A stretch of DNA of 62,813 nt, counting the filler, from Aduncisulcus paluster (Eukaryota), in assembly GCA_024181965.1 (NCBI GenBank). It is 7 parts of 7 records of this genome, joined end to end, with 100 filler letters (N's around TTAATTAATTAA, not from the genome) between each part and the next. Parts side by side here need not be neighbours in the genome. Positions count along the whole stretch, not along the records: positions 1 to 8,762 come from BQXS01000010.1; positions 8,863 to 26,430 come from BQXS01000012.1; positions 26,531 to 33,156 come from BQXS01000014.1; positions 33,257 to 37,598 come from BQXS01000015.1; positions 37,699 to 46,893 come from BQXS01000016.1; positions 46,994 to 53,963 come from BQXS01000017.1; positions 54,064 to 62,813 come from BQXS01000019.1. One strand, given 5' to 3'. Shown here piece after piece: positions 2,234 to 56,998 of the stretch. How positions within the stretch are numbered: the stretch's first letter is position 1; each line of letters begins with the position of its first letter. A program made the translations under genes and the position numbers. Below the pieces are notes generated by a model. That model was not told where the DNA came from. It was given only the letters and a program-made list of their open reading frames with translations, and did no database searches.

Positions 2234-3286
2234 ATGAGTATATCCACAGATGTCGTTCAAATCGTGAGACCGGTGTTTATTTATGAGGCGGATGAATATT
2301 GTCTTCCAATTCCTAGGGATTCTCCCAATATTACGAAGCCATTCTTCCAATCTATCGAAGCCAGATATAAAAGCTCAGAAACAAGCGCTCCTGGATTTGA
2401 TGAGAGTTTAAATGCACAGAAGATGATGAAAGGGGAGAAGAATTATGGTTGTTTTACTCATATCTCCATTCCTTTCTCTCTATCTTCTTCGATCAAGGGT
2501 GCTTATATTGTTCTCCATCATTTAGATTATGATGACGTTCCGCCGCATCCATCCCACCTTATGTTTACCTTTTCTACATCAAAAGGAAAGAAAACATCCA
2601 AAAAATATGATTTTCCAGAAATTGAGACCGATTGTTGGTTCTTTCTTCCTGTTGATCTCTCTGATGTTGTTTTTTGCGAGATTACAGGGAAAGGAAAAGA
2701 CCAAGAGTATTTTCACATTAATTCCCTCGTTTTCTTTCGAGAAGAAACCCTTGAGGAAACTGTTGTTCGTGAAGCCAGAGAGAAACAATGGTTATCATGT
2801 GTACAGTTAAAATCTGAGTTTGTGAAAGAAGGAGATGAAGATCACATTCCTTTTCTTCTTGATGATCCAAAGGTTTTGAACCCTTCTTTATTCTCGATGG
2901 TAACTGCTAAGGATGACACGTATAGTAAGGAATCTGAGGAGTATGATCAGACTTCAGATGCACAAAAAATGTTAAAAGGGGAAGGTTATGTCTATTTATC
3001 CCATCTTTCTATCCCTTTCCCATCACCTAGTCCAATTAAAGGTGCTTATATGTGTGTGATTAAATATTATAGTTCTCCATCTCTTCTCTTCACTTTCACT
3101 GATGCATCTGGAAAGAAAACATCCAAGAAATTCGAATTCTCAGAGCCTAAATTTTTGAATGAATGGCACTTCCTTCCTATTGATTTGGATAATGTTGTAT
3201 TGTGTGAGATTGAAGGAAAAGGAACGTGGTATGAGAAACATAGGAGAGACTATAATATATCCTCCCTTGTTTTTCTCAAAATCTAA
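2234..3286 (+). CDS. Lineage-specific two-domain protein (tandem HLSIPF/KGAY/WHFLPIDL domains), paralog A
   Basis: Start placed at ATG 2234 (MSISTD) by analogy to the paralogs starting MSSSTD. Two internal copies of a ~165-aa domain. Clear paralogs at 9582-10625 and 55895-56998. Confidence 0.85.
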   Translation: MSISTDVVQIVRPVFIYEADEYCLPIPRDSPNITKPFFQSIEARYKSSETSAPGFDESLNAQKMMKGEKNYGCFTHISIPFSLSSSIKGAYIVLHHLDYDDVPPHPSHLMFTFSTSKGKKTSKKYDFPEIETDCWFFLPVDLSDVVFCEITGKGKDQEYFHINSLVFFREETLEETVVREAREKQWLSCVQLKSEFVKEGDEDHIPFLLDDPKVLNPSLFSMVTAKDDTYSKESEEYDQTSDAQKMLKGEGYVYLSHLSIPFPSPSPIKGAYMCVIKYYSSPSLLFTFTDASGKKTSKKFEFSEPKFLNEWHFLPIDLDNVVLCEIEGKGTWYEKHRRDYNISSLVFLKI

Positions 3287-3782
3287 AAATATGAAATTTG
3301 TTTATTCTGTTATCAGGGCAATGATGGCATCAGAGCATGATGGTCTCGCTTTTTGACCATAATCTTACATATCATTGAAGGGGATCTATTCCAGTCAATA
3401 TAAATTGCCAACTTCTCCATATTATTAAATATCATATCATATGACACCGAATGATTAAATATTTGGTGATGCCGATCAGTGATCACCAAATATTTTTGAC
3501 ATGGTCTTTTTGGGGAAAATATGAAAAAAATAAAATATAGTCCAATAAATGTGTGAATAAATCTGTAAATATTTATGGTATTGCTGTATTTTGGGGCTAG
3601 CAACGGCAAAACGAATATCATGGGAAATTCTTTAAAAGATGAAATAAACAAGGAATTATTGATTTATGCAAAGAGTTTATGTTTTGTTTTGCCGATTAAG
3701 GACAAGTTTATTTCAACTTCTGACGCTAATAATAATAAATTTTATTTTCAAAATCTTTTCCTGTCAATCAGGCTTTTTCAAA

Positions 3783-6700
3783 ATGAACGAGGATGAGTTT
3801 CATTCTTTTTCTGATGATTTAGATCTAGATATTCCAATAAGAGTCGGTGATATAAAAAGGGATGAAGAGCAAGAATTGGAAGAGGAGCCCAAGCCAAATC
3901 CTATAACTCCGCAACCCTACCAGGCTTCTAGTTCTTCTCACAATTATGATTTAGAACCCGTTGTATCAAGCATGCTTGCTAGGAGAGTTTTGTCTCGAAT
4001 CGGAACATTCAAATCTCCAAAGGTCGGTACCATCTGTGTTGACCCGGATAATATTCCAAGAAAACCTGTAAGGAGTCCTTCTGGGCACAATGTATGTGTT
4101 ACCGTCCCCGATTATATTCCTTCAAATTCCTTACCCCACGAAAATCCCATGGCACTTGCGGATCTTGATGGTCCACGAGAAATATCGATGCCTACACCTG
4201 AAGAATTCTTAGCAATGATGACCCCTCCATCTAAAACCTCTCCAATTCGCTCCAAACCTACCAGATCTAAAAAACCAATCAAATCGCCTTCTGGAAGTGG
4301 CTCAAATGTTTTTGCAAGGATGGAAAAGGATTTAAATGAGCGGAGAATGAAACAAACAAGCTTTTTAAAGACCCGAGAGTCTATTGAATTGGCATCTTGT
4401 ACATTTTCTCCATCTGTTTCAAGACATGCCCATTCTATTCGTTCTGATAGCTTCAGAGCTCTTCCACTAACCGACAAGAGTCGTATTGAGAAAGAACTTG
4501 AGAAGAAACGTCTTGACATTGAAAGGAAGAAGAGAATTCGCGATGAAATGATTGAATCTTCCTGCACTTATGTTCCTCCAATCAATTCCAAATCAAAGAA
4601 ATATGTGAAAGAACTCAGGGACGGAAGTCGAGAGCTTGCTCGTAGAGAAGCCGAAGAAAAGAGAAAAGAGGAGCAGAGAGAAAAGGATCGCCTTGAAGAA
4701 GAAAGGAAGAAGAAAGAGGCTGAGATCGAACGTAGGCGTGTCGTTGCAAAACAAATGATGGAAGAAAAAGAGAAGAAACGCATTGAACGCTTCAAGAAAG
4801 AACATGGGTGCACGTTTGCTCCACAAGTGAGTCATTCCGTGGGTGAAGCTGGTCAGCTTGAACGTTCCGCCCATTCAGGGTTTTATGGGGAAGTTCTCTT
4901 TGAAAAATGTCATGAAAAACAGAAAGATGCCAAGGCAAAGAGAGAACAAGAGGAAGAGCGTCGCAAGAAGCTTGAGGAGGAACAGAAGAAGGCCAACGAT
5001 CGTATATACCAAGAAAAAGAGCCCACTCAATTTGCTACCCCCAAAGCTGAGGATATTCGCTGGATTCGTGAGCAACGTCGAAAGTGGATCAACGAGAAAC
5101 GTGATGAATTGAAGAAGAAGAGAAGAAACGCATTGAACGCTTCAAGAAAGAACATGGGTGCACGTTTGCTCCACAAGTGAGTCATTCCGTGGGTGAAGCT
5201 GGTCAGCTTGAACGTTCCGCCCATTCAGGGTTTTATGGGGAAGTTCTCTTTGAAAAATGTCATGAAAAACAGAAAGATGCCAAGGCAAAGAGAGAACAAG
5301 AGGAAGAGCGTCGCAAGAAGCTTGAGGAGGAACAGAAGAAGGCCAACGATCGTATATACCAAGAAAAAGAGCCCACTCAATTTGCTACCCCCAAAGCTGA
5401 GGATATTCGCTGGATTCGTGAGCAACGTCGAAAGTGGATCAACGAGAAACGTGATGAATTGAAGAAGAAGATGAAGATGATCGAACGTAGGCGTGTCGTT
5501 GCAAAACAAATGATGGAAGAAAAAGAGAAGAAACGCATTGAACGCTTCAAGAAAGAACATGGGTGCACGTTTGCTCCACAAGTGAGTCATTCCGTGGGTG
5601 AAGCTGGTCAGCTTGAACGTTCCGCCCATTCAGGGTTTTATGGGGAAGTTCTCTTTGAAAAATGTCATGAAAAACAGAAAGGAGAAAAGAGGAGCAGAGA
5701 GAAAAGGATCGCCTTGAAGAAGAAAGGAAGAAGAAAGAGGCTGAGATCGAACGTAGGCGTGTCGTTGCAAAACAAATGATGGAAGAAAAAGAGAAGAAAC
5801 GCATTGAACGCTTCAAGAAAGAACATGGGTGCACGTTTGCTCCACAAGTGAGTCATTCCGTGGGTGAAGCTGGTCAGCTTGAACGTTCCGCCCATTCAGG
5901 GTTTTATGGGGAAGTTCTCTTTGAAAAATGTCATGAAAAACAGAAAGATGCCAAGGCAAAGAGAGAACAAGAGGAAGAGCGTCGCAAGAAGCTTGAGGAG
6001 GAACAGAAGAAGGCCAACGATCGTATATACCAAGAAAAAGAGCCCACTCAATTTGCTACCCCCAAAGCTGAGGATATTCGCTGGATTCGTGAGCAACGTC
6101 GAAAGTGGATCAACGAGAAACGTGATGAATTGAAGAAGAAGATGAAGATGGTGTCGATGAGTGTGGCTCACACGATGTTCAATGAAATTATGGAGGAAGT
6201 CGTCAGAATGATCGGCAAATGGGTGAGGGAAGAGGAACAATGGGTATCTGGCGTTACTAATGGATCCTTCGTGGACAGTGGGTACTCTGGGCTCAAGAGA
6301 GAAGACTTTCCAAGGTTAGACCAGTACCTGAAATGTCGTGAAATTGCTGAGAAAAAAGAATTAGAGAAGTTAAGCAAGAAGAGAGACGAGGAAGGAACCT
6401 CTGGCGAGCTCGGTAAAAAAGAGCTTAAAAAGGTCGAGAGCAAACTTAAATCACAATCTCTGCTCTCTGAATCCATTCATTTCAAGGGAAATGTCGTTAA
6501 TAGAGCAATTGAACTGGAAAGTGTTTACAAGAAACGTATGCAAAAACTCATTGTTCCTATCCACGAGTCTGAAGCCGAGAAATATATCAGAGAGAAGAAG
6601 GAAAAGAGAGAATTGCACCGGTTACGCGCGCAATTTGTTCCCAAAATAGTGACATCCCCAAAATGGCGCGATGGTGTTATTCCCAATGGAGGTGAAGGCG

Positions 6701-7446
6701 AAGATGCTGAATTTGATGGTTCTCTGACAGAGAGTGTATTGAGAGACGACCAAGGAGACAAGAAGAAGCAACAATATGTGGCCCCTCCAATTTTACTTAC
6801 CCCCGACCAGAAGGATCTTTTCACCCGTCTCCATGGCACAGCCATTATCCACATGCAAAACAGGGAGAATCGAAGGAAGAAGTATGAACAAGAAGAGATT
6901 GACTCCATGAAACAAGCCCGTGAACACCTGACCGAGAATGCCCGTGCTTCTGTCGATGAAATGTTAAAGGGTAGACGTGTCCAACCTCCTAAATGTGATA
7001 AGGATATCCAGTCTGACGTGTTTCTCAAGTCAAAGCTGGAGACTAACCCTGAATTGAAACGGAAGGTTGAGAGAGAAGTCCAGGACAAACGTATGGAGAA
7101 CGTTTTCAAGAGGGCATCAGCCAATGTGAGCGGCTCTCTTTCTGGCGTTGTTGGTGCCGAGAGTGGGATATTACCTTCACACGAGGAGGAGGAGGAAGCT
7201 GAGATGGGAAATGTTGCTGATGATGTTCTTGGAATGGATGATCTTCACATTGGCGGTATCGTTGAGGATGAAAAAGAGGGAAGGGAAGAGAAAGAGATGC
7301 TTTTTGATTTTCATGATGACGTTGAAGAGCAACAGGAAGAAGAAGGAGATAAAGAGATGACAAAACCAGTAAGTGTTGAGGATAGATATGATACTGAAGA
7401 CAAATCAGATTCTGAAATTGAGAGTGAGAAACATTCAGACCTATAA
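3783..7446 (+). CDS. Large charged coiled-coil protein with CTF.P motifs, probably cytoskeletal; one gene of ~880 aa once the duplicated 1,021 bp is removed
   Basis: ATG 3783 (MNEDEF). Motifs CTFSPSV, CTYVPPIN, CTFAPQV. K/E/R-rich helices and an acidic C-terminus. ORFs 3666, 5177 and 5776 are repeats of the same sequence, and deleting 1,021 bp restores a single frame. Confidence 0.7.
4665..6150. repeat. Near-identical internal re-duplications of 4665-5120, probably a mis-assembly
   Basis: The same 89-aa alternative-frame ORF appears at 4843, 5193 and 5864. Junctions fall in AAGAAG low-complexity sequence. Confidence 0.8.
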
Positions 7447-7833
7447 TTAGATATCCATGTTATGTGTGTTGTCACTGTTAGTTGTCTGTCTGTCCATGTG
7501 ATCCATTATTCCTTTCTTCTTTTCTCTCTTGTTTCTTTATTATTCTGGCATTTTCTTTTTTTCCCAATATTTCTAGTAGATTGATAGATTTGGTTTTATC
7601 GATGAATTTTTTTTTTATATTGATTCTTGCAAGATAATGTCAAAAAGCTCTCTCTTTGAAGGAGATTTTTTATTCTATTTTATGCATTTCTTGATCTCCC
7701 TGCCTTTATTATTATTATTATTATTCGACTTAGTTGGTTGAATGGAAATCTTTCTTAAATATCATAATTTTGCTATATCATCTTGGCTATATATATATAT
7801 ATATAAAACATTAATATTTATTATCTTTTTTTC

Positions 7834-7864
<31 letters not shown>

Positions 7865-8132
7865 GATTTTTTTTTCTGTCATGGATACATTAACGAATCC
7901 TTTTGTTATTGTTGTATCAAATTCCTTCATTATAGAATCATATTTAACATATTTCATCAATATGATCACATTTCCTGTCATATCTCATCAAGATTTTTGT
8001 GCCACACGACTTTTATCTTGGTATTAACATTGATGGTTTGAAGCAATTTGAAGTAAACATCCAATTTGAAGTCTGAGTCTCAAATTTTGAGACTCAATTA
8101 TTATCTCTGGTCAAGCTCCATCTCGATTTCAA

Positions 8133-8762
8133 TTGAGAACTATCTACAGTAATAATGAACATATTGACCATCTTAATCATGTTCTTGATTCTCTTGAACA
8201 CAAACTCCAAGTCTCTGCGCTTCAACACAAGTCTCAGTCCCGCACAAAATATAGTGCTAGAGGCGTGGAAAGTCATGTTCATAGTCATCCTCTTTCCTCC
8301 GTTAGGGAACTTGATGATGAAATGGATATCGAACATTCAAGGGAATACGATAAGGAGAGGAGAAGGAAAGGAATGGGAAGGGAAGACGATAAATATATTA
8401 CTGAAGAAGGAATTCGCAGGAATAATGGATCCGAGTTGGGGAAGATAAGCTCAAAGAAGATAAGCTCAAAGAAGATAAGCTCAAAGAAGATAAGCTCAAA
8501 GAGGAGGAAGAGTCGAGAAGGAAGGAGTCAGAACTTAAGCAAGAGGGAGAGAGCAAGGCAAATGATTGAGGTCAGAGAGAGGGAAAGGAAGAAGAGAGAA
8601 GAAATAATGAGAGAAAGGAAGAAACGGGAGAGATCTGCTAAAATATCTTTGTACAGAGCTCTTGATGCCTCAATCAGTGGTGTTTCCCTCTCTGGACATG
8701 TTAATAGTGTCGATGAGTGTGGCTCACACGATGTTCATGGTGTCGATGAGTGTGGCTCACAC
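8133..8762 (+). CDS. Basic low-complexity hypothetical protein, truncated at the contig end
   Basis: Open frame rich in R/K/E, with KISSK repeats, running into the linker. Start unclear. Confidence 0.45.
8442..8501 (+). repeat. 15-bp tandem repeat (AAGATAAGCTCAAAG)x4 encoding KISSK
   Basis: Four perfect copies read directly from the sequence. Confidence 0.95.
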
Positions 8763-8862
8763 NNNNNNNNNNNNNNNNNNNNNNNNNNNNNNNNNNNNNN
8801 NNNNNNTTAATTAATTAANNNNNNNNNNNNNNNNNNNNNNNNNNNNNNNNNNNNNNNNNNNN
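8763..8862. other. Artificial contig linker N44-TTAATTAATTAA-N44; same linker at 26431-26530, 33157-33256, 37599-37698, 46894-46993 and 53964-54063
   Basis: Identical 100-nt spacer with stop codons in all six frames, present six times. Confidence 0.98.
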
Positions 8863-9558
8863 TATGCAAACATGAGCATATTTCAGAGGAGGAGAGAATA
8901 AGGAATCACAACATGAGCGCAGACAGACTCATTGTGGAGCAATTCTTTGGCCGTTTAAAAAACACTTGGAGGGTTATGGGGGGTCGCTTCTCTTTGGGGG
9001 GTGAATCATATGCCGACATATTTCTTGTATGCGTTGCCCTGACCAATTTGTTAGTGACAAGATCCCCGTTAAGACGAGATGAAGCAGCGACGTATCGACA
9101 TTTGATGAGAAAGCATTGGTATTCCCTTCCTAATAGGAGGGTAGAAGAAGACGAGGAAGAAGACGAGGAAGGTCAAGATGCACCAGCTGAACACTCACCA
9201 AACTTATCTTTGCTCTCTCAAAGTGCCGTTTTAACCAGTGATTCACGTCCAACCGAAGAAGAAGATGATTAGATCGAGTTCAAGCATTGTAACATAATTA
9301 CGAGATATTAAACAATAAATATTCATTGTTTCTGTATTTAATTAAGAAAATATCATATTTTACGATAATACAATTACGATATTAATCAATTACGGAAAAA
9401 TCAATGAAATTTCACATCTGGCGGACCAATTTCAAAATTCGAACCAATTTCGAAATTGCCGACTAATTTCGAAATTGCTGACCAATAAAGTTTATTGATG
9501 GAGTAATTTCTTTATTAAAAATAATTTCGAAATACCCCCCCTATTCGGAAATTCCCCT
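8863..9558 (+). mobile_element. Right end of a PIF/Harbinger-ISL2EU-like DNA transposon: DDE_Tnp_4-type transposase C-terminus (8865-9272), subterminal repeats and putative terminus
   Basis: Frame open from the contig start: 'ISEEERIRNHNMSADRLIVEQFFGRLKNTWRVM...IFLVCVALTNL', the conserved catalytic-Glu region. Palindromic AATTTCGAAATT-like repeats at 9428, 9446, 9465 and 9523. End ...TTCGGAAATTCCCCT followed by AT. Confidence 0.8.
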
Positions 9559-9581
9559 ATTCATACAGCATTAATAATTTC

Positions 9582-10625
9582 TTATGGCACAGTAAATACG
9601 AGGGAGCAGATCCAGAAACAACGACTATGCTGAAAAGACCACATCCCTTTACCTTCAATCTCACACAATACAACATTACCCAAATCAATAGGAAGGAAGT
9701 GCCATTCATATTCATGTTTAGGTCTTGTGATGAATTCATACTTCTTGAATGTCTTCTTACCATCACAATCAGTGAAAGTGAAAAGAAGAGAGGGTGAACT
9801 ATAACACTTATTCACACAGATATAAGCACCTTTCATGGGACTAGGTGATGGGAAAGGGATGGAAAGATGGGATACTGATGTCTTATATTTCCCTTTTAAC
9901 ATTCCTTGGGCTTCACAACTCTTATCATAATATTTTTTCTCACAATACGAATCATCGTGGCCCTGAACCATTGAGAATGCGGGATTTAAAATCTTTGGAT
10001 TATCATGTAAAATGGGAATAGAATCTCTACCATAAGATTCCCGAACTTCTAGATGATATCCTTCCTGAACAAACTCAGGTTTTACAACAGTAGCTTCAGA
10101 CCAGAGTTTCTCTCTGGTTTCACGAGCTTTGATTTCTTCTCTACTAATGAAAACAAGGGAGGCGATTCCAAAATACTCTTTCTCTCTTCCTTTCCCTATA
10201 ATCTCACACAGAACAACATCAGGGAGATCAACAGGAAGGAAATACCAACTAAAATCATCAGGAAAATTGTATTTCTTGGCTGTTTTCACCCCCGTTGAAG
10301 ATGTTAAAGTGAAGATAAGATATTCAGGTCGATTCCAAGCACCACCAAGATAGATATAAGCCCCTTTCATTGGAGAAGATGAGGAAAAAGGAATGGAGAG
10401 ATGGGAATAGTATCCATCATTTTGCTCTCCTAACAATATCCCTTGTGCTTCCCAAGTTTGATCATACTCATCTTCATCGTCAATCTTTGCCCCCGCTTTG
10501 ATCGAAATAAAATCTACACACTTGATATTGGGGCTATCTCGAGGGATTGGACAGTGGTCGTAGTTTCCTCTATATAAAAACTCAGGTTTCACGATTTGTA
10601 TAGATCTATCGGTCGATGAACTCAT
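9582..10625 (-). CDS. Lineage-specific two-domain protein, paralog B
   Basis: ATG 10625 (MSSSTD). Two HLSIPF/KGAY/W.FLP.DL/VVLCEI domains. Long nucleotide identities with 55895-56998. Confidence 0.85.
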   Translation of the reverse strand: MSSSTDRSIQIVKPEFLYRGNYDHCPIPRDSPNIKCVDFISIKAGAKIDDEDEYDQTWEAQGILLGEQNDGYYSHLSIPFSSSSPMKGAYIYLGGAWNRPEYLIFTLTSSTGVKTAKKYNFPDDFSWYFLPVDLPDVVLCEIIGKGREKEYFGIASLVFISREEIKARETREKLWSEATVVKPEFVQEGYHLEVRESYGRDSIPILHDNPKILNPAFSMVQGHDDSYCEKKYYDKSCEAQGMLKGKYKTSVSHLSIPFPSPSPMKGAYICVNKCYSSPSLLFTFTDCDGKKTFKKYEFITRPKHEYEWHFLPIDLGNVVLCEIEGKGMWSFQHSRCFWICSLVFTVP

Positions 10626-11105
10626 TGTCAATGAAAAGAGAGTCGAATCTGAAAATATTAAAACAATTACAATGTAGTGAATATAATTGTATTTCTTTTA
10701 AAATATGAAAGCTGGAGACAAAAAAAATAAAAAAATTTAAAGTTTAAATCCGGATTTTAAACTCAACTTGATCCCGAACAACCTAAGTTACAAAACATGA
10801 TAAATTGCAGTAAAACTCTATGAATATCGTGAGGATCATCGACTTATTGGCAGAGAAGCTATACTTCTGGTTTTCTGATTTACTCTGTGTGTGAGTCCCG
10901 TGATGGATCTTTGAAGTTCATACCGTTAAACTTACAAATAAATCCTGCTATCACAATTATTTATAGATTTCTTGCCAAGAAAAAGATTGCTAAGCCTGTT
11001 GATTTTGTAAAAGAATAAAATACTCATTGATACTTACACAGCACAAATAAGAAAATATATATCTTAGAAATATTCAAAAAATTCAAGAAATAATCAAACA
11101 ATTTA

Positions 11106-12806: not shown

Positions 12807-12898
12807 ATGTAACCAAATAAGAAAAAAAATTTCAAATTCGATTTATCTTTAGATTTTGTCCGATTTTCAATTTTGATACATAATATTTTTTATTTTTT

Positions 12899-14834: not shown

Positions 14835-15259
14835 GGGTTTCAAATTGTTTTATTATAAAGTTCAAATATTATAAATTACAAGAATAGTAGGTAGACATCC
14901 ACTTGTATTCCTTTATTGTTGAGTTATACCAATCGATTTCAATATGGGGAATATTGTATTATACGGGTGTTTGAAGCTGTTTTTGAACATTTCAATGGTT
15001 ATTTTTCAAAACTAAAAGTTTGTATGATTAGATATTGCCTTTTTATGGTGAAATTACTGCAGAAATCATCCAGTATGAATCATCAATTGTATTCGTCCAT
15101 TAGCGCTGAAAATAGCATTTTGGTGCATAGAAACTTGGATAAAATATATGCAATATATATTTTTATTTTAAAATTATTGTTTATTTTTGCAATAAATTAG
15201 TTTGTTTTGCAATGCACAAAACATGATTCTTTTTTTGTTCTTGACGCTATTAATAAGAA

Positions 15260-17197: not shown

Positions 17198-17356
17198 AGC
17201 TAGATATTGATAGAATTATGACATAATCAATAATATTTCGTTGTTGAGAATCACCTTGATGATATATAAAATAAAGATCTATCGAAACTCTCTAATGTCA
17301 ATCCTAGTGATAATTGTATTTCTTAAACGATTTATCTGTATTTCTTAAATAACAAC

Positions 17357-22528: not shown

Positions 22529-23849
22529 ATCTTCATATGTCAATACATGGTATATTATTTCTTTCCGTATCAAAGGAGGAAAAGATTTTTGATGATCATC
22601 ATCGTCAGTGACGAACTTTCCAATCATCATGATTTAATAACAAATAAAAGTAAATTGGGTATCTCGTCGAATATTTTGTCAAATTTTCCTCCGTGGGAAA
22701 CTGATAAAAATTGACCTCCATTTGCGACATGATCGAGGTTTTTTTTCTCCGCTGAAACCATTGTTTTGTGAGTCATTAGTTCTCATAATTCAATTGGATT
22801 CCGCAATTTGATAATTCTTTGTCCGAATTCTTGATTTTTACATCTATTGCATCCATCCATCTCCATTTTACATTACATTTGACTTTTATCAAGAGAAGAA
22901 ATGTTTTCAAAACACTCGGGTCAAGCTCTTCTTTCAATTAAACCCGTTTCTGGTCCATCACATGGTAATATGAAGTGGGGAACTCCCAAATTAATCTCCA
23001 ATATTTTTGGTGTGGAGCATCCAAAAGTTGTCATCCCTTCTTCATGTCAATCTGATTTTGATGAAAAATTGACCTCCATTTGCGACATGATCGAGGTTTT
23101 TTTTCTCCGCTGAAACCATTGTTTTGTGAGTCATTAGTTCTCATAATTCAATTGGATTCCGCAATTTGATAATTCTTTGTCCGAATTCTTGATTTTTACA
23201 TCTATTGCATCCATCCATCTCCATTTTACATTACATTTGACTTTTATCAAGAGAAGAAATGTTTTCAAAACACTCGGGTCAAGCTCTTCTTTCAATTAAA
23301 CCCGTTTCATCTTCATATGTCAATACATGGTATATTATTTCTTTCCGTATCAAAGGAGGAAAAGATTTTTGATGATCATCATCGTCAGTGACGAACTTTC
23401 CAATCATCATGATTTAATAACAAATAAAAGTAAATTGGGTATCTCGTCGAATATTTTGTCAAATTTTCCTCCGTGGGAAACTGATAAAAATTGACCTCCA
23501 TTTGCGACATGATCGAGGTTTTTTTTCTCCGCTGAAACCATTGTTTTGTGAGTCATTAGTTCTCATAATTCAATTGGATTCCGCAATTTGATAATTCTTT
23601 GTCCGAATTCTTGATTTTTACATCTATTGCATCCATCCATCTCCATTTTACATTACATTTGACTTTTATCAAGAGAAGAAATGTTTTCAAAACACTCGGG
23701 TCAAGCTCTTCTTTCAATTAAACCCGTTTCTGGTCCATCACATGGTAATATGAAGTGGGGAACTCCCAAATTAATCTCCAATATTTTTGGTGTGGAGCAT
23801 CCAAAAGTTGTCATCCCTTCTTCATGTCAATCTGATTTTGATGAAAAAT
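22529..23849. repeat. Identical tandem re-duplications of the upstream region and 5' end of the 23681 gene (offsets 358 and 780 bp), probably artefactual
   Basis: 22529-23069 equals 23309-23849, and 22706-22950 recurs at 23064-23308. AAAAAT microhomology at a junction. Confidence 0.8.
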
Positions 23850-25562
23850 CTGATCTAAAGAGTTCTGTAGACTCTGTTGAGGGCAATGCCTTTCTTAATT
23901 TTAAGACTCTTTCGTTTTCTTTCTCCAAAGCTACATTTATAGAGTCCGTTCAGTTCAAAACATCGACAAATCCATTCCCTAAAGATCTTTTGTTTATATT
24001 TTATTCAACAAAGAAGGAGGAAGTGTGTTGTCGATTCCTTAATGATGATTATCAAGCCTTCGATCTCCCTATTCAAATTTCTGGAGTTGTGAAATGTAAT
24101 GTTCAATGTCTTTGTCAGAAATCAGGGAATGAAAGCACTTTTAAATTAGATGGCGTGAGGTTTATTATGGGTAATGATCCTTCTCAAATATCTGTTATCA
24201 AACCCATCTCTCCTCCACCCGAAAAAATGCTTTTCCCTGCCAAACCCATTAAAGAAGGCGATGAATGTGAACCAATTATCCCATATACATCTCCAAAGCT
24301 CGTGGTCCGTGCCTTTCGCGAAGAAGATGGGTCATTCTTGCCCGGTTCCACTCGAGTCACTCTGTATGAGTGTATTGAAGGTAATTCTCGTGTGTCCTTT
24401 TCCAATATTCAGGTTCCATTTGCCTTTCCACAGAATCTATCTTCCATTTTTATTTGCTCGAATGGGTTCAGGAGGCAACCAAAGGAACTTGTTCTAAATT
24501 TTCACAATGTCACTGGTGAAATTATAACAAAAATATTTACGTTTGAGAAACAATATGGATACTATTGGTTTGAGCTTTATGTGGATGTGGATAGTGTCAT
24601 TAAGTCTGAAATTGAGTGTCTGTCGAGTTGGGATGGAGATTCTTATTGTCAAATCGATTCCTTGCAATTCGCCTTGGCTGAACAAGATGCCGCACGTCAA
24701 TCGCTGATCCATGCAGATAAACAATCTGAGAGAGATGAGAGGACAGTTCGTGTCCGTTTTGACAGAGAGGAATTATTCTCCTGGTCTTCCCCATCCTCTT
24801 TCACTCATGTTGTTGATTCTGAGCATTATATTGATGTGTCTAGACTCTCTGGTACCTTTGCTGGACTCAGTGATATCGATATGCTCTCAAAGTGTGTCAA
24901 TCAGCTTTATTTCTTATCGTTTTACTCTCTTTTCATTCCATTTGTTCACTCCCAAGACATTAAAGGGGTTCGTTTGTTCATTGACAGTGCTAAAAACTCT
25001 CCTCTAAAGAGTTCTGTAGACTCTGTTGAGGNNNNNNNNNNNNNNNNNNNNCACTCATGTTGTTGATTCTGAGCATTATATTGATGTGTCTAGACTCTCT
25101 GGTACCTTTGCTGGACTCAGTGATATCGATATGCTCTCAAAGTGTGTCAATCAGCTTTATTTCTTATCGTTTTACTCTCTTTTCATTCCATTTGTTCACT
25201 CCCAAGACATTAAAGGGGTTCGTTTGTTCATTGACAGTGCTAAAAACTCTCCCAAACACATGGATGTTAATGTAACAACCAGTATTGGAGTCACTATGAA
25301 GAAAGAGTTCTCTGTGGATTCTTCGTTTGACCATGGATGGTTATTCCTTCCTATTGATGTTAAGGAGGTGGTTAGTTTTGAAATATCTTCAGTAGATTCG
25401 ATAAAGGGCACTAAATGGTCTGTTATTGGCGGTTTGAAAGTCGTGGTCGATCATGATCAATCCATTATGGAATCATTTCAAGTTCAGAAATTATCCGAAC
25501 TTTATCGATTGTTCTCACAATATTGTTCTCTTTGGCAGATGCCTGCTATAGCAAATGAATAG
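23681..25562 (+). CDS. Three-domain divergent member of the lineage-specific beta-domain family (~543 aa after removing the 250-bp duplication)
   Basis: Three repeats such as 'SFYSLFIPF...IKGVRLFID...SPKHMDV...KKEF...GWLFLPIDVKEVVSFEI...IGGLKV' and 'YWFELYVDVDSVIKSEIEC...IDSLQF'. Confidence 0.75.
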
Positions 25563-30073: not shown

Positions 30074-30082
30074 CTGGAATAA

Positions 30083-46893: not shown

Positions 46894-46993
46894 NNNNNNN
46901 NNNNNNNNNNNNNNNNNNNNNNNNNNNNNNNNNNNNNTTAATTAATTAANNNNNNNNNNNNNNNNNNNNNNNNNNNNNNNNNNNNNNNNNNNN

Positions 46994-48758: not shown

Positions 48759-49116
48759 TCTGTCGGTAATTGTCGAAAACTCGAACTCTTGATGTGCGCT
48801 CCAAAAAGATGAAATAATTGATAATTTACTATATAAATTGAGTGTTTGTCTACTATTAAATAATAATTACAGTTATTATATCGTTCTCAACCTTTAAATC
48901 AAGCCATTAATTTTCAATGGCAATTTTGGCTGAAATACAAAGTTAATATGCAATATTTATAAGAATTTATTAAAATAGATAAAAATTAAGCAAAAATTTC
49001 GATTTAAAATTCAAATATACCTGTTTGAACAACCAAGATTCTGGGTTAGAAGAAAAAAGTGAAAACGAACGAAGAAATCTCGAAGAATACAAAAAAAGCG
49101 GCCGATTTTGAATGGA

Positions 49117-50056
49117 TTAATTGGGTTGAATGAAGATACTTTGATAAGGGAGATCTACACCAATTAAAATTTGGATTAATCCCATTGCAAGTCCACTTAC
49201 AACGGGTATCATGAAGTTATCGTCAAGGAATGCACAGAAAAGTTCTGTAAATCCGGCAGAAAAAGCTCCGAAAAGAGAAATAATTGATGAATTTACAACA
49301 TCAACTCCCCCGATTGAATGAATCACAACCATGCAGGAAATATAACAAACTATAATGTTTCCAACAAGCCCCTCCGCAGTTTTCTTTCCTACAAGTCTGT
49401 GTTTTCCATATGCTATTCCAACGAGTGCGGCAGATAGATCACCCAGCATCAGACAAATGATTGAAGCTATACCCAAGATTGGAGGAAGAAGTAAAACAAC
49501 CAAAAAGGCAGCAACCAAATAATATATAATACCTGTGAATCTTGTAACCTCTTTGGTTCTCATAAGAGGTCCAGCGATCACAATAAATAAAGCATTTACA
49601 GTGGGGAAGGTCATACGTGTTAATTCTGCAAACATAACAAGAATGGCGATTGAAGCAATTATAAAGGCCACTGAAGTTCTTTTAATAATACCTTTTTCGA
49701 TGAGAAAACCATACAAAAAAGGAACAAGGAGACCAACGAGATGAAAAGATTTCCGTTTGAATTCAGCAACTAATTTTGGTTGTCTATGCTTATCTACCCG
49801 AAAAATTGTTAAAAGATTTAATAAAAAGGGTGATATTGGAGCTTTAGCTGAAAATAAAGGTAAAATAGAAATAAAACCAAGAAAAAAACATAAGAAGGCA
49901 GAATACAACAAAAATAGTGATGAAAATATATTAAGTTGATTACTTACAGATAATGGGATCTGTGGTGGGCATGTGTGATATTTGATATGTCCGACAAAAC
50001 ACAAGAATCGACTTGCAAAGGGCTGGAAAATTAATGCGCCGTCCTAGTGGCATCAT
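49117..50056 (-). CDS. CTP-dependent polyprenol/diacylglycerol kinase family membrane protein (DGK1/VTE5/dolichol-kinase-like), one intron
   Basis: 'EFKRKSFHL', 'GDLSAALVGIAYG', 'KKTAEG', 'DDNFMIP', and multiple TM helices. Exon 1 is 50056-49948 with a GTAAGT donor at 49947. In-frame acceptors at 49794 (TTAAC branch candidate) or 49848. Confidence 0.82.
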
Positions 50057-50209
50057 AGTTTAAAAATTATTATTAAAACAACGTTTTATAGAAAATGAGA
50101 AAGGAGTCTTATCATGGGTCTTTTTTCGACACGTTTGGATCTTCCACTTTGAAAAACCCATTTTTTGAAACCCATTATCTCAGTCATTATCGATTCCATT
50201 TGAATTAAA

Positions 50210-50797
50210 ATGGCTGATCAGACAGAAAAATCGATGTATGCACAATTATATGAAAGATATAAAGAAGATTTACTAAGGGATATTGCATCTTTGGCAGAAG
50301 GTATGTCGATAAATTCAAAAAATTACTAATCAAGTATTTTTCATTGCCAGTCGATTTTAATATTGTTTTTATTTGTACTTTTTGATTATTTCAACTGCAT
50401 GGTGATTTGAACAATCATGGTTTTTGTAGGTACTGATCCAGAATTAATAAGGATGAATAAGGAATCTGAATCGTTTGCAGAGAAAAGAAGGCATATTTCG
50501 ATGTTAAAATTCTTTTATGAAGTACAACGAGCTAGAAATATGTTAGAGAGTGATCTTGGCGGAATCGAGAGAGATCTTCAACAATCATATATATTTAACA
50601 AAGAACTCACACTTCAAAAGATAGATATTAAACGAAGCGATAGCATTGAAGAAATGAAAGGATATTTGAAACCTTACGAAAAGGCAATTCCCAAAGAAGA
50701 TCTTCCAATGCTCTCTCTCCCCGAAATTCCAATTCGAAAAAGAAAGGCATCAAGTGATATTGTATTGGATCAGTCAAAATTTTCAATCGATGAATAA
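50210..50797 (+). CDS. Small coiled-coil protein, Sds3/BRMS1-like (Sin3-HDAC subunit candidate); exons 50210-50300 and 50430-50797
   Basis: Intron 50301-50429 (GTATGT...TTTGTAG) gives 'QLYERYKEDLLRDIASLAEGTDPELIRMNKESE...', resembling the Sds3 'L..L.EGT.PE' helix. Confidence 0.55.
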
Positions 50798-51271
50798 TAA
50801 TAACCTATATTTATTCGTTGATATTCGATGTGTTTTATTGTCAGTATCATATTCTATTTTTCAAGTATTTTATGCAAATTAATTGCAAATAAAGCTTTTA
50901 ATGAGATTTTCTAGGGCTGTTCTTTTGTTACATCTTTCAAAGTTGCTCTAGAGCGGCTGATCAACTCTGGGAAAAAAAAATCAGTTGTGGACAACGATGG
51001 AGGAAATTACTTTAGATTTAGCACTTGTAATTGCAAATAATCCAATTTCAGCAGCTAAAAAATCAGATTTGCTTAGGGATCTTAGCAATAGGGCTGTCTT
51101 AACAATTGCTATNNNNNNNNNNNNNNNNNNNNTTTTCAAGTATTTTATGCAAATTAATTGCAAATAAAGCTTTTAATGAGATTTTCTAGGGCTGTTCTTT
51201 TGTTACATCTTTCAAAGTTGCTCTAGAGCGGCTGATCAACTCTGGGAAAAAAAAATCAGTTGTGGACAACG

Positions 51272-53252
51272 ATGGAGGAAATTACTTTAGATTTAGCACT
51301 TGTAATTGCAAATAATCCAATTTCAGCAGCTAAAAAATCAGATTTGCTTAGGGATCTTAGCAATAGGGCTGTCTTAACAATTGCTATGAACCCAAAACAG
51401 CTTTCACTTGCTAAAGTTGCTGATTTATATTGCTTATCAGTTGCTTCAAAAGGTGTTAAAGATTTTTCATTGCGTTTTTCTGAATCTATACAATCATTAC
51501 ACGTAAGTTTGAAGGATGTGTCAAATGGAAATCTTATTAATGCTCTTTCAACTTTGACGGGATTAACTTTTGGTGAAACAGATATGTCTTCCATGCTCAC
51601 CCGGTCTTGGATGTACGAATTGATTATAGCTATTCTCGTTCGTATGCTTTCTTCTCCTGTGCCTCCACGGTTAGTTCCCTTTATTGTATTTCAGTTGACA
51701 TGTAATATTCGTGTTTCTGATATTACTCAAACCTTGGTTTCTTTGGTTTGTAGACGTTTTTCTGACAATATCCCCTTCATTCTCACCCTATTAAAATCTT
51801 GGCTTCAATTCCTTCACAAAGCCAATTTTGCTGCATTCCATCGTGAATCTGCAACCATTGTTCAGACTCTTCACGTATTTATGTCGTCAATTACTAAATT
51901 TACTTCAATTGGTAACATTTCCATTCTGTTGTATGATATGTTTGATATTGGAATTCAAATTGCCAATTTGGGAGGTTTATTAGCCATGACACAGGATTCT
52001 CCCTCCCAAAATTTCCTAACCACCCTATTTATTCTTGCGTGTATCCATTCCCATCTCATTCAGACATCCCATGCCACCCCTGTTTTCACTGCGACTCAAA
52101 ACATTATTCTGAGCCAAAAGGCCGTTCAATTCTTGATAACTTGGGTAGAGTGCGGTGGAGCTAGTTTTAAAGTCTTCACGCCCACACCCCGGAGTGCTGG
52201 ATCATTCGTTGTAACCCACACAGATCTCTCCCTCTCTTGTGTTCGGATGCTGTGTGAATTTAGCCGTAAATACTCACCATCACTCGTTCGTTGCACCCGT
52301 TTCCCCACGCCACCTTCCATTGCTTCCTCGTTAGCCTTTGGAGGAGGCAGTATGGGATCATCAAGGAGAGGAAAGAAGGGCAGAAAGAGGAACAAAAAGA
52401 CCGGTTCAAAATCTTTTGCTTCAACGTCTTCCATTTTTGATGACAAATCTGTAACCGAATCCCATGATTTTGAGGAACAGGAAACATCCGGAAAGCGAAG
52501 AAGTTCCTCATCACAAGCTCAGTCCGATGATCTTTCTAACGGAGACATGTGCATTTCACACTGTATTCAGAAGGAATGGTTTGATACTTGTGAACATCTC
52601 CCTGGGTTTCGGGCTTCCTTGTTCGATCTTTTGCGTGCATTGTTCATCATATCCCCTCCAGAACATCCCGCTCCCTTCATCCCCATGCTTTTATCGCTCT
52701 GTAACGAAGTGAGAACGAATTCGCGAGTGAGTAATAGGTTATCACTCAGTGCTGCCTCCTGCCTCGCTGCTGTCCAACTCTCTTTCCTCCCCAGTGGTGT
52801 ATGTACCCCGCAATCCGGTGACATTGTCAAAGTTATCCGTGTTCCAGTGATAGTTGAGGACCATTGTGTTCCATGTTCTTCTCATCCAGTGAGTAATGAG
52901 TTATCACTCGTTGCTGCCGCCAGTGAAGTCCAGGTTCCAAATCAATCATCCATGCCCATCCTTGGTCTTGTATCCGGTTCCAATAATCAGTCGAGTGGTA
53001 GTGATGGAAAGAGAAGGATCGACACGGGAAAAGATGAAGAAACTCAAGATAGACTGCAAAATGAAGAGATGGAAGAAGAAGAGGAACCGTCTGTGCCAAT
53101 GTTTGGAACTGAACTGGTTGATCGTACACCTATTCAAACCCCATATGAGTCTCCAATCCAAAGTGAAGGAGAAGATATCCGTGATGAAAGCAAATCTAAG
53201 CATATTTTCTCTCTGAAGGGAAAAGACGAGGAAAAGTTGCAACCCATAGAAA

Positions 53253-53283
<31 letters not shown>

Positions 53284-53296
53284 GGAGGAGGACGAC

Positions 53297-53328
<32 letters not shown>

Positions 53329-53365
53329 AGCTGGACACGCCCTTGATTTATCTACTTTCATGTGA
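51272..53365 (+). CDS. Helical-repeat protein with an acidic tail, PELP1/Rix1-like candidate
   Basis: Helical N-terminal region, basic loop 'RRGKKGRKRNKK', 'FRASLFDLLRALFIISPPEHPAPF...SAASCLAAV...P' resembling the PELP1 C-terminal helical region, and a poly-Glu tail. The 5' region is duplicated across the gap at 51113-51132. The CDS is solid; the family call is tentative. Confidence 0.55.
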
Positions 53366-53754
53366 ATCCTATAATTTTTAGGGATATTCTATCGCTCCCC
53401 TCGAACCATTAATGGTCACGATTATTTGTTCTGACTTTACATGCCAAATTAAATCCTGGTTTATCTTTTTTAAAATTTCTTACATCGGGCTAGTTCTCCG
53501 CTTCTCCCCCCTTTCCTCTCCTTTTTGCTTAACTTCACTTCCTCCGAAAATAAATCCGTGTTTCTCTCGTTGAGATCTCATTTTGGATTGTGTCAAAAAT
53601 TGTTGTTTGCAGGATGTTGATATTCTGAGTGAACCATTCCCGAATTCGTAATGTATTTGTGATGTGAGTCTTGCCATAACCATGTGAACCCTCATCCGCG
53701 AAGGTTTTCTCGATGTGCGCAATTATGATATGTTCTGTGTGAAATTTGAGGCGT

Positions 53755-53828
53755 GCCTTCGTAGCTCAGTTGGTTAGAGCACCCGGCTGTTAACCGGTAG
53801 GTCGTAGGTTCGAGTCCTACCGATGGCG
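53755..53828 (+). tRNA. trnN-GTT: tRNA-Asn (GTT)
   Basis: Acceptor GCCTTCG/CGATGGC (one U-U mismatch), D-arm GCTC/GAGC, anticodon arm CCGG-CTGTTAA-CCGG, T-arm GTAGG-TTCGAGT-CCTAC, discriminator G, no encoded CCA, TTTT terminator at 53830. Confidence 0.95.
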
Positions 53829-54063
53829 CTTTTCAGTCTTTCTTTCTTGATGCAGCGTTTCGCTCACACACTGATAAATGATGAAGATAGGAGATAGATA
53901 ATCATATCGTTGAAGAGAATACAGATTGCTGTGGTCCATTATCAACAGTTTTATAAAGTTTATNNNNNNNNNNNNNNNNNNNNNNNNNNNNNNNNNNNNN
54001 NNNNNNNTTAATTAATTAANNNNNNNNNNNNNNNNNNNNNNNNNNNNNNNNNNNNNNNNNNNN

Positions 54064-54733
54064 CATCAAGATTACCGACTCTTTGAGCCATACGTGCTAA
54101 TACCAACAAAAGGGGAGGAAGTTGGGCAAAATTGGGAATTGAAGAAGGATCAAATCCGGAAATTTCCATCATGCCTCGCCTCACGGGAATAGCAACATGT
54201 GTAGGATCACTTTCGGGGTTTCTGGCAAGAATATGAGCAAATAAATACCATGTCCACATCCTTAGCATCGAAATATTGGGCAATTTATCATATAATGGGC
54301 ATTTATATTCGGTTTTTAAAGGATCTTGAGTTGTTTTTTTTATGCCTTTCTTCTTTGCAAGTTCCTCTTGAAACTCTGCATCAGTTACAATTAAGAATTG
54401 GTGTAAAGCATTTTGGGCAGGAGCAAATGCCCCTTCACGTGCCAGAAAATGAGCTGCAATGAAGAATGCTGGGAAAAAGGTGGATTGGTTCTTGTTCTGA
54501 CTGAATTCAACACAAAGATCAAGAGCTCCTTGGTGTTTTGAAGGCTGGGATGTTCCCAGAGGATCAATCATTATTGAAAAGGCCAAATAAATCAAAGCCT
54601 CTTGTTTCTCTGTTGTTGATGCCTTCTTTTTTTTGGCGATGATATCACAGCGATCTGTACCATATTTCCACCAATCTTGGGCGGCTTTATATCTATCCTT
54701 GAGGGGTATTTCAAGAGATAAATCGAACATCAA
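54064..54733 (-). CDS. Alpha-helical (TPR-like) hypothetical protein, 3'-truncated
   Basis: Open frame running into the linker, with amphipathic helix pairs ('AFFIAAHFLAREGAFAPAQNALHQFL'). Confidence 0.6.
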
Positions 54734-54973
54734 ATTATTACTCCGAAGAAATGACGATTGATTCTCTCAATCATTTTTGAAACTTTAAACTGCAATATAC
54801 TCAGTAAAGAAATGTTATAAATATCATCATTTGTTTAAATTATTTTATTTTTATTTGTTGAATCTGCTTGGAGAAGCCTTTGTTACACCAATGGAAGAAA
54901 ACGAAAAAAAGTGCCCCATAAATTCTTACAATGTCATACAACTGTTTATTACGAATATTTGTTAAAAAATAGA

Positions 54974-55549
54974 TTATTTCGACGCAATATCAACTAATAA
55001 ATCAAAATATTTTGTTACATTTTCCTTACTTTGATCTAAACAAGAAGAGATCAAAAGACATCTTGACATTTCTTGAGGGAGATACATTTCTTGAGCGTGT
55101 TCTTCTAATGATTTCCTATTTGCAAAAACAATAATTTTAGATCCCACTTTAGTAGTAGCAATTGCAGAATAAAATGCATGAAGATCTCTGGCCGCTGATT
55201 TGTCTCCAGCTTTAATAACAATTGCAACTGCATCAAATAGAGGAGAAAAGGTCACAATTTGAGATAATCTAAAGCACAATAAAGAAAAATAAACAACAAA
55301 AATAACATCAAATACAAAAGAACAGGAATAATTGGAAACATACGTTGCATCTCCTCCAAAATCGAAAAAATCGATTTTTTTATGTCCATATTTTGTTTCT
55401 TTTTCTTTGGATAGAATTCTTAAAGTTGATTTCAGTGGGATAGATTGAAAATCTTTCAGTGGGAGTTCATCATTAACATAATAATCAACTAATGAACTTT
55501 TACCAGTAGAGCGCGGTCCTATTATTGCAATTTTTATGGTATCGGTCAT
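54974..55549 (-). CDS. IFT22: Rab-like small GTPase, IFT22/RABL5-like; intron 55269-55343
   Basis: G1 'IIGPRSTGKS', 'TLRIL', G3-like 'FFDFGGD', atypical G4, no C-terminal prenylation cysteines. A 75-nt GTATGT...TTTAG intron accounts for the hydrophobic insert. Confidence 0.6.
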   Translation of the reverse strand: MTDTIKIAIIGPRSTGKSSLVDYYVNDELPLKDFQSIPLKSTLRILSKEKETKYGHKKIDFFDFGGDATYVSNYSCSFVFDVIFVVYFSLLCFRLSQIVTFSPLFDAVAIVIKAGDKSAARDLHAFYSAIATTKVGSKIIVFANRKSLEEHAQEMYLPQEMSRCLLISSCLDQSKENVTKYFDLLVDIASK

Positions 55550-55894
55550 GTTTTAATGTATGGAGAAAACAAACCCGGAACCTTATTTTTCTATTTGAAA
55601 TTGGATAAATAATCTATAATTTCAATATGTAATAATTCAATTTTCTCCGGAATTCGTTAATTTCATTATTTATTTGCATATTACAAAAGTGTTGATGACG
55701 TTGAGTCAACAACTTGTTGAACATTGAGTCAATGTCACATTGACCGTCAAAGTACAACGTGACGTTGTTGATTGAGAAGGAATCATCGAGGATCAACTTG
55801 ATCGAAGGAGTGTGCAACTTGTTCAACAATCAACCATCAACTTCAAGCTTGAAATGAAATCTTCTCTCAATAGGAAACTTTCCTCTCTGCACAG

Positions 55895-56998
55895 TTAAAA
55901 ACTATTCCACGGAAGAAGACATAATCGTTCAACAATAATTTCCTCTGGAATGGCAGTAAAAACAAGGGAGTAGATGTAGAAATATCGACTATTCTTATCA
56001 CACCACCTTCCTTTCCCTTCAATTTCGCACAATACAACATTACACAAATCAATAGGAAGGAAGTGCCATTCAAATATACGTTCAGGTTGTGTGAATTCAT
56101 ACTTCTTGGATGTCTTCTTACCATCACAATCAGTGAAAGTGAAGAGAAGAGAGGGTGAACTCCAATTCTTCTCCACACATATATAAGCACCTTTCATTGG
56201 ACTTGATGAGAAAGGGATAGAAAGATGGGATAAGGGTACATCACATTCCCCTTTTAACATTTTTTGTGCTTTTGAACTTCTATCATAAAACTCAGATTCC
56301 TTACCATAAAAATCATCCTTGCACTTAACCATTGAGAACCAAGGATTTATAAGATGTGGATCATCATGTGGAATGGGAATAGATTTTCTACCTTTTGATT
56401 CTTTATCTCCTTCCTTAACAAACTCTGGTTTCACAACTGGAGCTTCAGACCATAGTTTCTCTCTGGCTTCACGAGATTTGATTTCTTCAGGAGTTTCTTC
56501 TCTACTAATGAAAACAAGGGAGTAGATTTGAAAACACTCTTCCTTTCTTCCTTTCCCTGTAATCTCACACAGAACAACATCAGGGAGATCAACAGGAAGG
56601 AAATACCAATAATAGCCTATAAATTCATGAAATTCGCATTTCTTGAATGTTTTCTCACCCTTTGAAGATGTGAGAGTGAAGATAAGGTGTGATGGAGGTG
56701 AAGAATTACCATGTAGACAGAAATAAGCCCCTTTCATTGGGGAAGATGAAGAGAAAGGAATGGAGATATGGGTAAATTGTCCATAATTACCCCCTCCTTT
56801 CATCATCCTTTGTGCCCAAGAACTCTGATCGTACCCATATTCACCTTCTTCCTTGGTTATATTAATTGCTTTGATAGTTGGAGACTCTGCACCCGTAATA
56901 TTGGGGGCATCTCCAGGAACCGGACAGCAACTCCCCGATCCTTCGTGAACAAACACAGGCTCCACAGTTTGAATAATAGCATCTGTGGATGAACTCAT
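55895..56998 (-). CDS. Lineage-specific two-domain protein, paralog C
   Basis: MSSSTD start, two family domains, and a C-terminal extension 'PEEIIVERLCLLPW'. Confidence 0.88.
   Translation of the reverse strand: MSSSTDAIIQTVEPVFVHEGSGSCCPVPGDAPNITGAESPTIKAINITKEEGEYGYDQSSWAQRMMKGGGNYGQFTHISIPFSSSSPMKGAYFCLHGNSSPPSHLIFTLTSSKGEKTFKKCEFHEFIGYYWYFLPVDLPDVVLCEITGKGRKEECFQIYSLVFISREETPEEIKSREAREKLWSEAPVVKPEFVKEGDKESKGRKSIPIPHDDPHLINPWFSMVKCKDDFYGKESEFYDRSSKAQKMLKGECDVPLSHLSIPFSSSPMKGAYICVEKNWSSPSLLFTFTDCDGKKTSKKYEFTQPERIFEWHFLPIDLCNVVLCEIEGKGRWCDKNSRYFYIYSLVFTAIPEEIIVERLCLLPWNSF

Follow-up and report, generated by a model that had tools for sequence, protein, structure and literature searches.

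A free-living relative of Giardia, Aduncisulcus paluster, encodes in its genome a large family of a ~160-residue domain that has so far been found only in this species and that appears to lack recognisable sequence relatives. We analysed 62,813 nt of its DNA (the window), consisting of seven contigs (positions 1-8762, 8863-26430, 26531-33156, 33257-37598, 37699-46893, 46994-53963 and 54064-62813) that contain internal 20-N scaffold gaps and are joined by artificial N44-TTAATTAATTAA-N44 spacers. Structure models give the domain the galactose-binding-domain-like jelly-roll fold known from APC10/DOC, CBM32 and discoidin domains, its working unit is a didomain of one N-type and one C-type copy, and 88 of the 302 family records that we fetched also carry a protein kinase region. 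This fusion is the main functional clue and was absent from the original prediction, which had been made from the window sequence and described five family loci as part of a recognition repertoire. Our favoured reading, held with modest confidence, is that the family serves for targeting or for substrate recruitment inside the cell as a diversified module, and that its free didomains are kinase-less adaptors. The draft genome comprises 29.4 Mb in 25,863 contigs with an N50 of 4.6 kb and 15,316 predicted proteins (PMC9933649). The text of that announcement does not mention the domain family, nor did we find a description of it in the literature searched on the Aduncisulcus genome, the kinomes of Carpediemonas-like organisms and the Giardia kinome.

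Copies in the window and size of the family

The window holds five family loci on three contigs (1-8762, 8863-26430 and 54064-62813), namely three didomain genes, one three-domain gene and one fragment, listed here with the E values of their matches to domain hidden Markov models (HMMs) and with lengths in amino acids (aa):

2234..3286, plus strand: free didomain gene with an open frame of 350 aa from ATG, corresponding to database protein P0308
2255-2737 and 2807-3277, plus strand: N-type and C-type domain of this gene (E 5.8e-67 and 2.4e-66)
9582..10625, minus strand: free didomain gene with an open frame of 347 aa, corresponding to P0121
10140-10601 and 9591-10097, minus strand: N-type and C-type domain of this gene (E 1.1e-64 and 2.7e-67)
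55895..56998, minus strand: free didomain gene with an open frame of 367 aa, corresponding to P0003
56501-56974 and 55955-56446, minus strand: N-type and C-type domain of this gene (E 3e-77 and 1.7e-74), with a helical linker between them and a short conserved C-terminal tail
23681..25562, plus strand: divergent three-domain gene, identical to the annotated ADUPG1_000037 (P0152, 607 aa)
23813-24166, 24239-24673 and 24887-25006 + 25137-25439, plus strand: the three domains of this gene (broader HMM, E 3.1e-16, 4.7e-32 and 4e-5 + 8.1e-21)
242..484, minus strand: truncated or degenerate domain fragment that matches positions 30-111 of the HMM and has two stop codons after it

The narrow domain HMM of 158 positions, seeded on both halves of one didomain gene, detected six domains in the three close genes at E values of 1e-64 to 3e-77. 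Their frames are uninterrupted and share the motifs H[LI]SIPF, KGAY, FTFT..GKKT.KKYEF, W.FLP[IV]DL..VVLCEI and I.SLVF, in agreement with the original prediction of three close two-domain paralogues. The predicted divergent three-domain member was likewise recovered, with E values of 3e-16, 5e-32 and 8e-21 for its domains under the broader HMM. Its third domain is broken solely by a 20-N gap at 25032-25051, directly after which the segment 24802-25002 recurs as an exact 201-bp repeat at 25052-25252. This repeat, at an offset of 250, is an unmerged scaffold overlap, that is, an assembly artefact, and accounts for the apparent frame change in the third domain; through it the ADUPG1_000037 protein gains an internal duplication of ~60 residues. 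The broken copy proposed at 239-560 held up in part: a partial match covers 242-484 with an E value of 5.3e-7 under the broader HMM, the narrow HMM gave 0.61, and this putative relic or truncated gene is the weakest part of the observation.

At the DNA level, the three close loci are 71-78% similar, and this similarity is limited to the coding region, with flanks that are not shared. As it stops at the borders of the coding sequence (CDS), it speaks for a gene family and not for a mobile element. High copy number, dispersed copies, the truncated relic in the window and the fragmented assembly could all be read as signs of a transposable element, a viral gene, pseudogene debris, contamination or uncollapsed haplotypes. 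We regard such a non-functional or artefactual origin as extremely improbable and largely refuted by intact frames with strongly conserved cores, flanks free of repeats, contigs that carry ordinary eukaryotic genes and a spliced intron, and the presence of members in a transcript-derived set. The copies are paralogues and not alleles, because their identity of 54-80% is too low for the latter.

Database searches bore out the claim of a very large, dispersed family. A word-indexed search with the 367-aa protein returned 168 proteins of 201-643 aa, and the 120 matches listed were all A. paluster records or window proteins with 54-80% identity, while a profile search with eight window domains returned 233 proteins of 297-2000 aa, with A. 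paluster as the only species among the 120 listed. When 1.84 billion cluster representatives (50% identity) were scanned in full with HMMER, 178 of them matched at E≤1e-3, 153 of these at E≤1e-10. Thirty were sampled for their origin among the best 150 of these 178, a range that leaves the 28 weakest matches outside, and 29 of the 30 came from A. paluster; faint relatives in other organisms are thus conceivable. The remaining one, the Bacteroidales type IX secretion system protein P0259, was rejected as a repeat artefact, because its total score adds up 15 weak matches (≤10.5 bits each) to a 40-residue motif within a 77-residue repeat. The 302 fetched family records contain 719 near-full domain copies, with two window genes counted twice owing to different start codons, and the family makes up at least 1.5% of the predicted A. 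paluster proteins (at least 233 of 15,316). Names referring to NudC or CS domains on some UniRef records were not upheld: P0007, P0011, P0096 and P0298 have no CS match in Pfam at E≤1 and consist of the new domain only.

Fold, didomain architecture and kinase fusion

Against Pfam, hmmscan at E≤1 with four window proteins and nine further members gave nothing beyond sub-threshold noise, and neither ANAPC10 nor PF00754 was among the matches. A sequence search of the PDB with the domain gave no match, only two chance hits at E>1. The AlphaFold2 model of the 55895-56998 didomain, computed with 82 paralogues, reached a predicted local distance difference test score (pLDDT) of 91.4 and a predicted template modelling score (pTM) of 0.85, and consists of two beta-sandwiches linked by a helix at residues 170-185; the C-type domain modelled alone reached 96.8 and 0.91, respectively. 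According to these models, the didomain forms one compact body in which the N-type and C-type domains are joined by a conserved helix.

Comparison of the single domain by VIA-align gave galactose-binding-domain-like modules in all of the best 50 rows. CBM32 structures had the highest Z scores (12.2-13.3), and CBM32, APC10, DOC, IFT25 and PITH structures were tied within 1-2 Z units. Foldseek placed APC10/Doc1 at the top (1jhj, E 1.4e-4, template modelling scores 0.54/0.58), followed by CBM32, SUN and muskelin, and the two-domain model matched tandem CBM32, neuropilin b1b2, DDR1 (4ag4) and allantoicase. The top score in the ESM Atlas, 0.86, did not reach the 0.9 level, and the CBM32 and 'galactose-binding domain-like' rows there serve as leads only. 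The domain is thus modelled as a galactose-binding-domain-like jelly-roll. A handful of hits, a known Pfam family or a different fold would have refuted the original prediction; instead, the family proved to be large, without a Pfam match and with a modelled beta-sandwich fold.

The resemblance to APC10/DOC that had been proposed stood with regard to the fold and fell with regard to sequence and context, as there is neither a sequence match nor an E3 ubiquitin-ligase context. Structural similarity to APC10/DOC (PF03256) is seen in the models, a sequence-profile match is lacking, and membership of that family proper appears unsupported. True DOC homologues would recognise degrons for ubiquitin ligases, as is the case for APC10, HECTD3, HERC2 and CUL7. 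We consider this very unlikely here, since the ANAPC10 profile remained unmatched at E≤1 and the recurrent partner domain is a kinase; moreover, cullin, HECT and RING domains were missing from the precomputed Pfam annotation of the listed members (120 + 120) and from further Pfam scans.

Each domain copy was typed by scoring it against separate N-type and C-type HMMs. The pattern 'NC' was found in 135 proteins, of which 27 carry a kinase and 108 do not, and free didomains of ~365 aa, the kind to which the three close window genes belong, account for at least 100 proteins. Longer arrays follow patterns such as NCNC, CCNC and NCCNC with up to 15 domains, and most arrays that precede a kinase end in NC, so that the N-C didomain is the working unit of the family.

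Of 143 non-domain stretches that measure 100 aa or more, 91 are homologous to each other and fall into a single cluster. HRD[IV]K occurs in 60 non-domain regions, followed in most by DLG 25 residues on, and in many members HRD lies ~190-200 residues past the last domain, a spacing that favours true fusions over merged neighbouring genes. Pkinase scored above the gathering threshold in seven of nine long members scanned (PF00069, 35.7-60.4 bits; cutoff 31.7) and PF00069 was present on 28 of the 120 listed proteins out of 233. The kinase alignment shows the motifs GxGGFGEV, VLKK, HRD[IV]KPDNFLV, DLG and GTLVYNSxE, together with an acidic insert and a Ser-rich activation segment. Within the 88 kinase-bearing records, the kinase region follows the array in 82, precedes it in three and lies within or overlaps it in three.

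A profile of the kinase region matched 530 PDB sequences at E≤0.01, and the best 60 were all protein kinases, with STK38/NDR, HRI, CDPK, RIPK1 and Aurora at the top (E 1e-9 to 1e-6) and no Nek among these 60 of 530. The matches came from the profile only, as phmmer with one kinase-fused member against the PDB gave nothing. Judged by its sequence, the fused region appears to be a divergent, lineage-specific group of Ser/Thr kinases with intact catalytic motifs that look active. In the window itself, no kinase-like sequence lies near the family copies, including the region downstream of 2234-3286.

Other fusions are rare and comprise thioredoxin in two paralogues, leucine-rich repeats (LRRs) and AAA; for the latter two, a merging of gene models is a possible cause. 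P0148 has three domain copies together with LRRs. In P0058 and P0101, a thioredoxin domain (PF00085, E 1e-21 and 1e-14) lies C-terminal to the didomain, the opposite order to that of TXNL1, in which thioredoxin is combined with the galactose-binding-like PITH domain.

Cellular location, loop variability and possible function

No 19-residue hydrophobic window was found in the window proteins, in line with the claim that they have neither a signal peptide nor a membrane segment. Across the 302 records, such a window outside the domains occurred in 16, in most within the kinase core, in four in doubtful N-terminal extensions and in none between array and kinase. As they have neither signal peptides nor membrane segments, the family proteins are predicted to be intracellular, which supports the term 'cytosolic' used in the original prediction. 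A reading as receptor kinases was rejected, as no membrane segment lies between array and kinase. An MGxxx[S/T]-like start was noticed in 19 of the 276 records that begin with Met, several of them with Cys at positions 3-6 (examples are P0162, P0222, P0248, P0309, P0203, P0197, P0206 and P0048). We take this start to resemble an N-myristoylation/palmitoylation signal, and a minority of members may be anchored to membranes by N-terminal acylation. The three close window genes start with MSSSTD or MSISTD and do not have this motif.

Some indications of expression came from run X1, which we only guess to be RNA and whose assembled contigs have depths that cannot rank expression. Exact X1 contigs cover parts of the 55895-56998 CDS. 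One further contig links positions 55268 and 55344 over a GTATGT..TTTAG interval of 75 nt within the neighbouring GTPase gene on the minus strand, and this interval (55269-55343) is likely a spliced intron, a weak sign that X1 holds spliced RNA. Of the 1069 X1 contigs aligned to the gene, 480 are just 95-99% alike, a sign of many close paralogues. Coverage was low at 57175-57356, a stretch that we do not use as evidence. Three sampled members also occur in the EukProt set under transcript-style identifiers.

Because the domain shares its fold with CBM32 and F5/8 type C modules, the family might be a repertoire of lectins that bind carbohydrates, for instance cytosolic or prey-derived glycans, with the kinases signalling recognition. 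We regard this as unlikely, since the lack of signal peptides and membrane segments means that the domains face neither the outside nor a lumen, neither PF00754 nor CBM32 is matched in sequence, and CBM32 ties with APC10, DOC, IFT25 and PITH within the narrow range of Z scores given above.

Variability was measured as column entropy in an alignment of 82 didomain sequences and was found to be focused on every second loop. The alternate loops, i.e., the segment before beta1 and the beta2-3, beta4-5 and beta6-7 loops, had a mean entropy of 1.63 bits, compared with 0.64 bits in the other loops and 0.55 bits in the strands, so that beta1-2, beta3-4 and beta5-6 are near-invariant like the strands. 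Of 33 positions with at least 2 bits, 25 fall into the alternate loops, one into the other loops and seven into strands (permutation p<1e-4). As short loops reverse the direction of the chain, the alternate loops would lie together at one end of each sandwich. Loops at one end bind the ligand in CBM32 and discoidin domains and the degron in APC10.

We further explored the kinase link in a FastTree tree of 164 terminal NC didomains, comprising 50 kinase-linked, 103 free and 11 ambiguous ones, the last of which were not counted. Kinase-linked and free didomains interleave, with 23 state changes compared with a mean of 42 (minimum 35) after shuffling, indicating that kinase linkage is heritable yet has been gained or lost many times. 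The window's three genes were placed among free didomains, and for 55895-56998 one of the four nearest neighbours was kinase-linked.

Together, fold, architecture and variability suggest how the module might work. The variable end would recognise diverse intracellular targets, i.e., proteins and possibly glycans or lipids, and a common scaffold or partner would be maintained through the conserved end and the linker. Arrays in kinase fusions would localise the kinase or recruit its substrates, and the free didomains, having no kinase, would serve as adaptors or compete for the same targets. Array kinases and free didomains would then relate to each other as do the ankyrin-array Nek kinases and the kinase-less Protein 21.1 family of Giardia. 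The recognition repertoire of the original prediction thereby gains some support from the loop-focused variability and is otherwise still a conjecture.

Several points weigh against this reading. The functional part of it is drawn entirely from fold, architecture and variability, the placement of the variable loops at one end is deduced from strand order only, and the variability of these loops could reflect relaxed constraint instead of diversification. The count of 23 state changes comes from a FastTree topology without support filtering and is also inflated, by an unknown amount, by partial gene models. Many family proteins are such partial models from the fragmented assembly (N50 4.6 kb) and some fusions, such as those in the AAA ATPase P0282 and the LRR protein P0148, probably stem from the merging of gene models, so that both the counts and the labels as free or kinase-linked carry error.

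Two other readings were weighed. The family might be structural, forming an abundant scaffold, for example in the cytoskeleton of the feeding groove or the flagella, with loops that drift neutrally and kinase fusions that only anchor the kinases. The very many paralogues with a strongly conserved core would fit this, as would the many near-identical copies to which the 95-99% alike X1 contigs point, the flagellar protein IFT25 among the tied structural matches, and the location of analogous families at cytoskeletal organelles of Giardia, as stated in the part of the published account used here (PMC3218828). Uniform drift would not be expected to concentrate variation sharply in the alternate loops and to leave the remaining loops as conserved as the strands, and the depths of the X1 contigs do not help to rank expression; we consider this explanation possible but doubtful. 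Still more speculative is a rapidly diversifying intracellular recognition system formed by the variable didomains and the kinase arrays. It might be an address code by which kinases and adaptors in their hundreds reach different sites on the cytoskeleton or at membranes, or a set of immune-like sensors that detect molecules from bacterial prey, viruses or parasites and have the kinase as output. Such a system would employ the jelly-roll as a variable receptor in the cytosol and would have arisen in parallel to, yet independently from, the Nek/Protein 21.1 families of Giardia; it appears to us improbable.

Genomic surroundings and parallels in other systems

The neighbours of the didomain genes are unrelated to them and comprise the following genes:

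11106-12806, minus strand: AAA ATPase with Vps4_C (fidgetin/katanin-like), adjoining the didomain gene at 9582-10625
15260-17197 and 38476-46945, plus strand: large LRR proteins (LRR_8/LRR_4)
18496-22163, minus strand: 4-alpha-glucanotransferase GH77 preceded by two CBM20 starch-binding domains, in two open reading frames (ORFs) split by 20-N gaps
46995-48758, minus strand: part of a flagellar protein (HYDIN/CFAP65-like) that has Ig-like ASH/PapD-like domains, at a contig end
54974-55549, minus strand: gene for a small GTPase of the Roc/Ras type (Pfam Roc, E 4.5e-6), located downstream of the didomain gene at 55895-56998
58204-61098, plus strand: protein of 964 aa with a PARP catalytic domain (E 1.6e-10)

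The region 38476-46945 is probably one LRR gene of more than 2800 codons that is broken by scaffold gaps. Spacers occupy 8763-8862 and five further junctions, and ORFs that cross a junction, such as 46938-48758, are spurious. The 1598-aa protein P0282 ('fidgetin-like protein 1, partial') combines domain arrays with the AAA architecture of the gene at 11106-12806, to which, at 27% identity, it is paralogous; the combination reflects either the merging of gene models or a recurring neighbourhood. Within the PARP gene, the region 60469-61050 shows 28% identity to the N-terminal non-domain part of P0124, a kinase-linked family member of 3335 aa.

Coming back to the proposed targeting or substrate-recruiting module, it resembles several known systems in part. 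APC10/Doc1 and the DOC domains (ANAPC10, PF03256; HECTD3, HERC2, CUL7) have no detectable sequence similarity to the Aduncisulcus domain, which differs from them further by its didomain and tandem arrays, by a kinase instead of a ubiquitin-ligase module as partner, and by hundreds of paralogues in one species. With CBM32 and F5/8 type C modules, including the tandem CBM32 of Clostridium perfringens ZmpB, it has both fold and tandem arrangement in common, and the ligand loops at one end of those modules correspond to where, by strand order, the Aduncisulcus family varies. However, these modules are secreted or extracellular parts of glycosidases, peptidases and receptors, whereas the Aduncisulcus proteins have no signal peptide or transmembrane segment and no sequence match to them. 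DDR1 and DDR2 also carry a galactose-binding-like (discoidin) domain N-terminal to a kinase in one polypeptide. They span the membrane as receptor tyrosine kinases and have just one discoidin domain, which is extracellular. Unlike the DDRs, the Aduncisulcus proteins have up to 15 domains, no membrane segment between array and kinase, and a Ser/Thr-type HRDxKPDN loop.

The closest parallel comes from Giardia, as described in those parts of the published account on which we draw (PMC3218828). There, 133 of 198 Nek kinases carry private ankyrin-repeat arrays (TALM-ankyrin), and the kinase-less Protein 21.1 family has the same ankyrin repeat, with arrays that affect localisation. Common to both organisms are an expansion in a fornicate of one lineage-specific module in kinase-fused and kinase-less form, variable array length, a kinase that was repeatedly gained or lost and, as far as these parts of the account go, the lack of receptor kinases (PMC3218828). 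The Aduncisulcus module differs in being a jelly-roll and not an ankyrin repeat, in lying N-terminal and not C-terminal to the kinase, and in kinases that keep their catalytic motifs, whereas most Giardia Neks are inactive according to the same parts of that source (PMC3218828). The parallel is best regarded as one of analogy and not of homology.

The domain, which had neither a name nor a Pfam model, now has a predicted fold, an N-C unit, a recurrent kinase partner and a mapped variable surface, and a block of 'hypothetical proteins' has been turned into testable hypotheses. The combination of a kinase family, a private targeting module and kinase-less copies suggests that this arrangement arose more than once in Fornicata from different building blocks, which bears on how the cells of these organisms organise signalling without receptor kinases.

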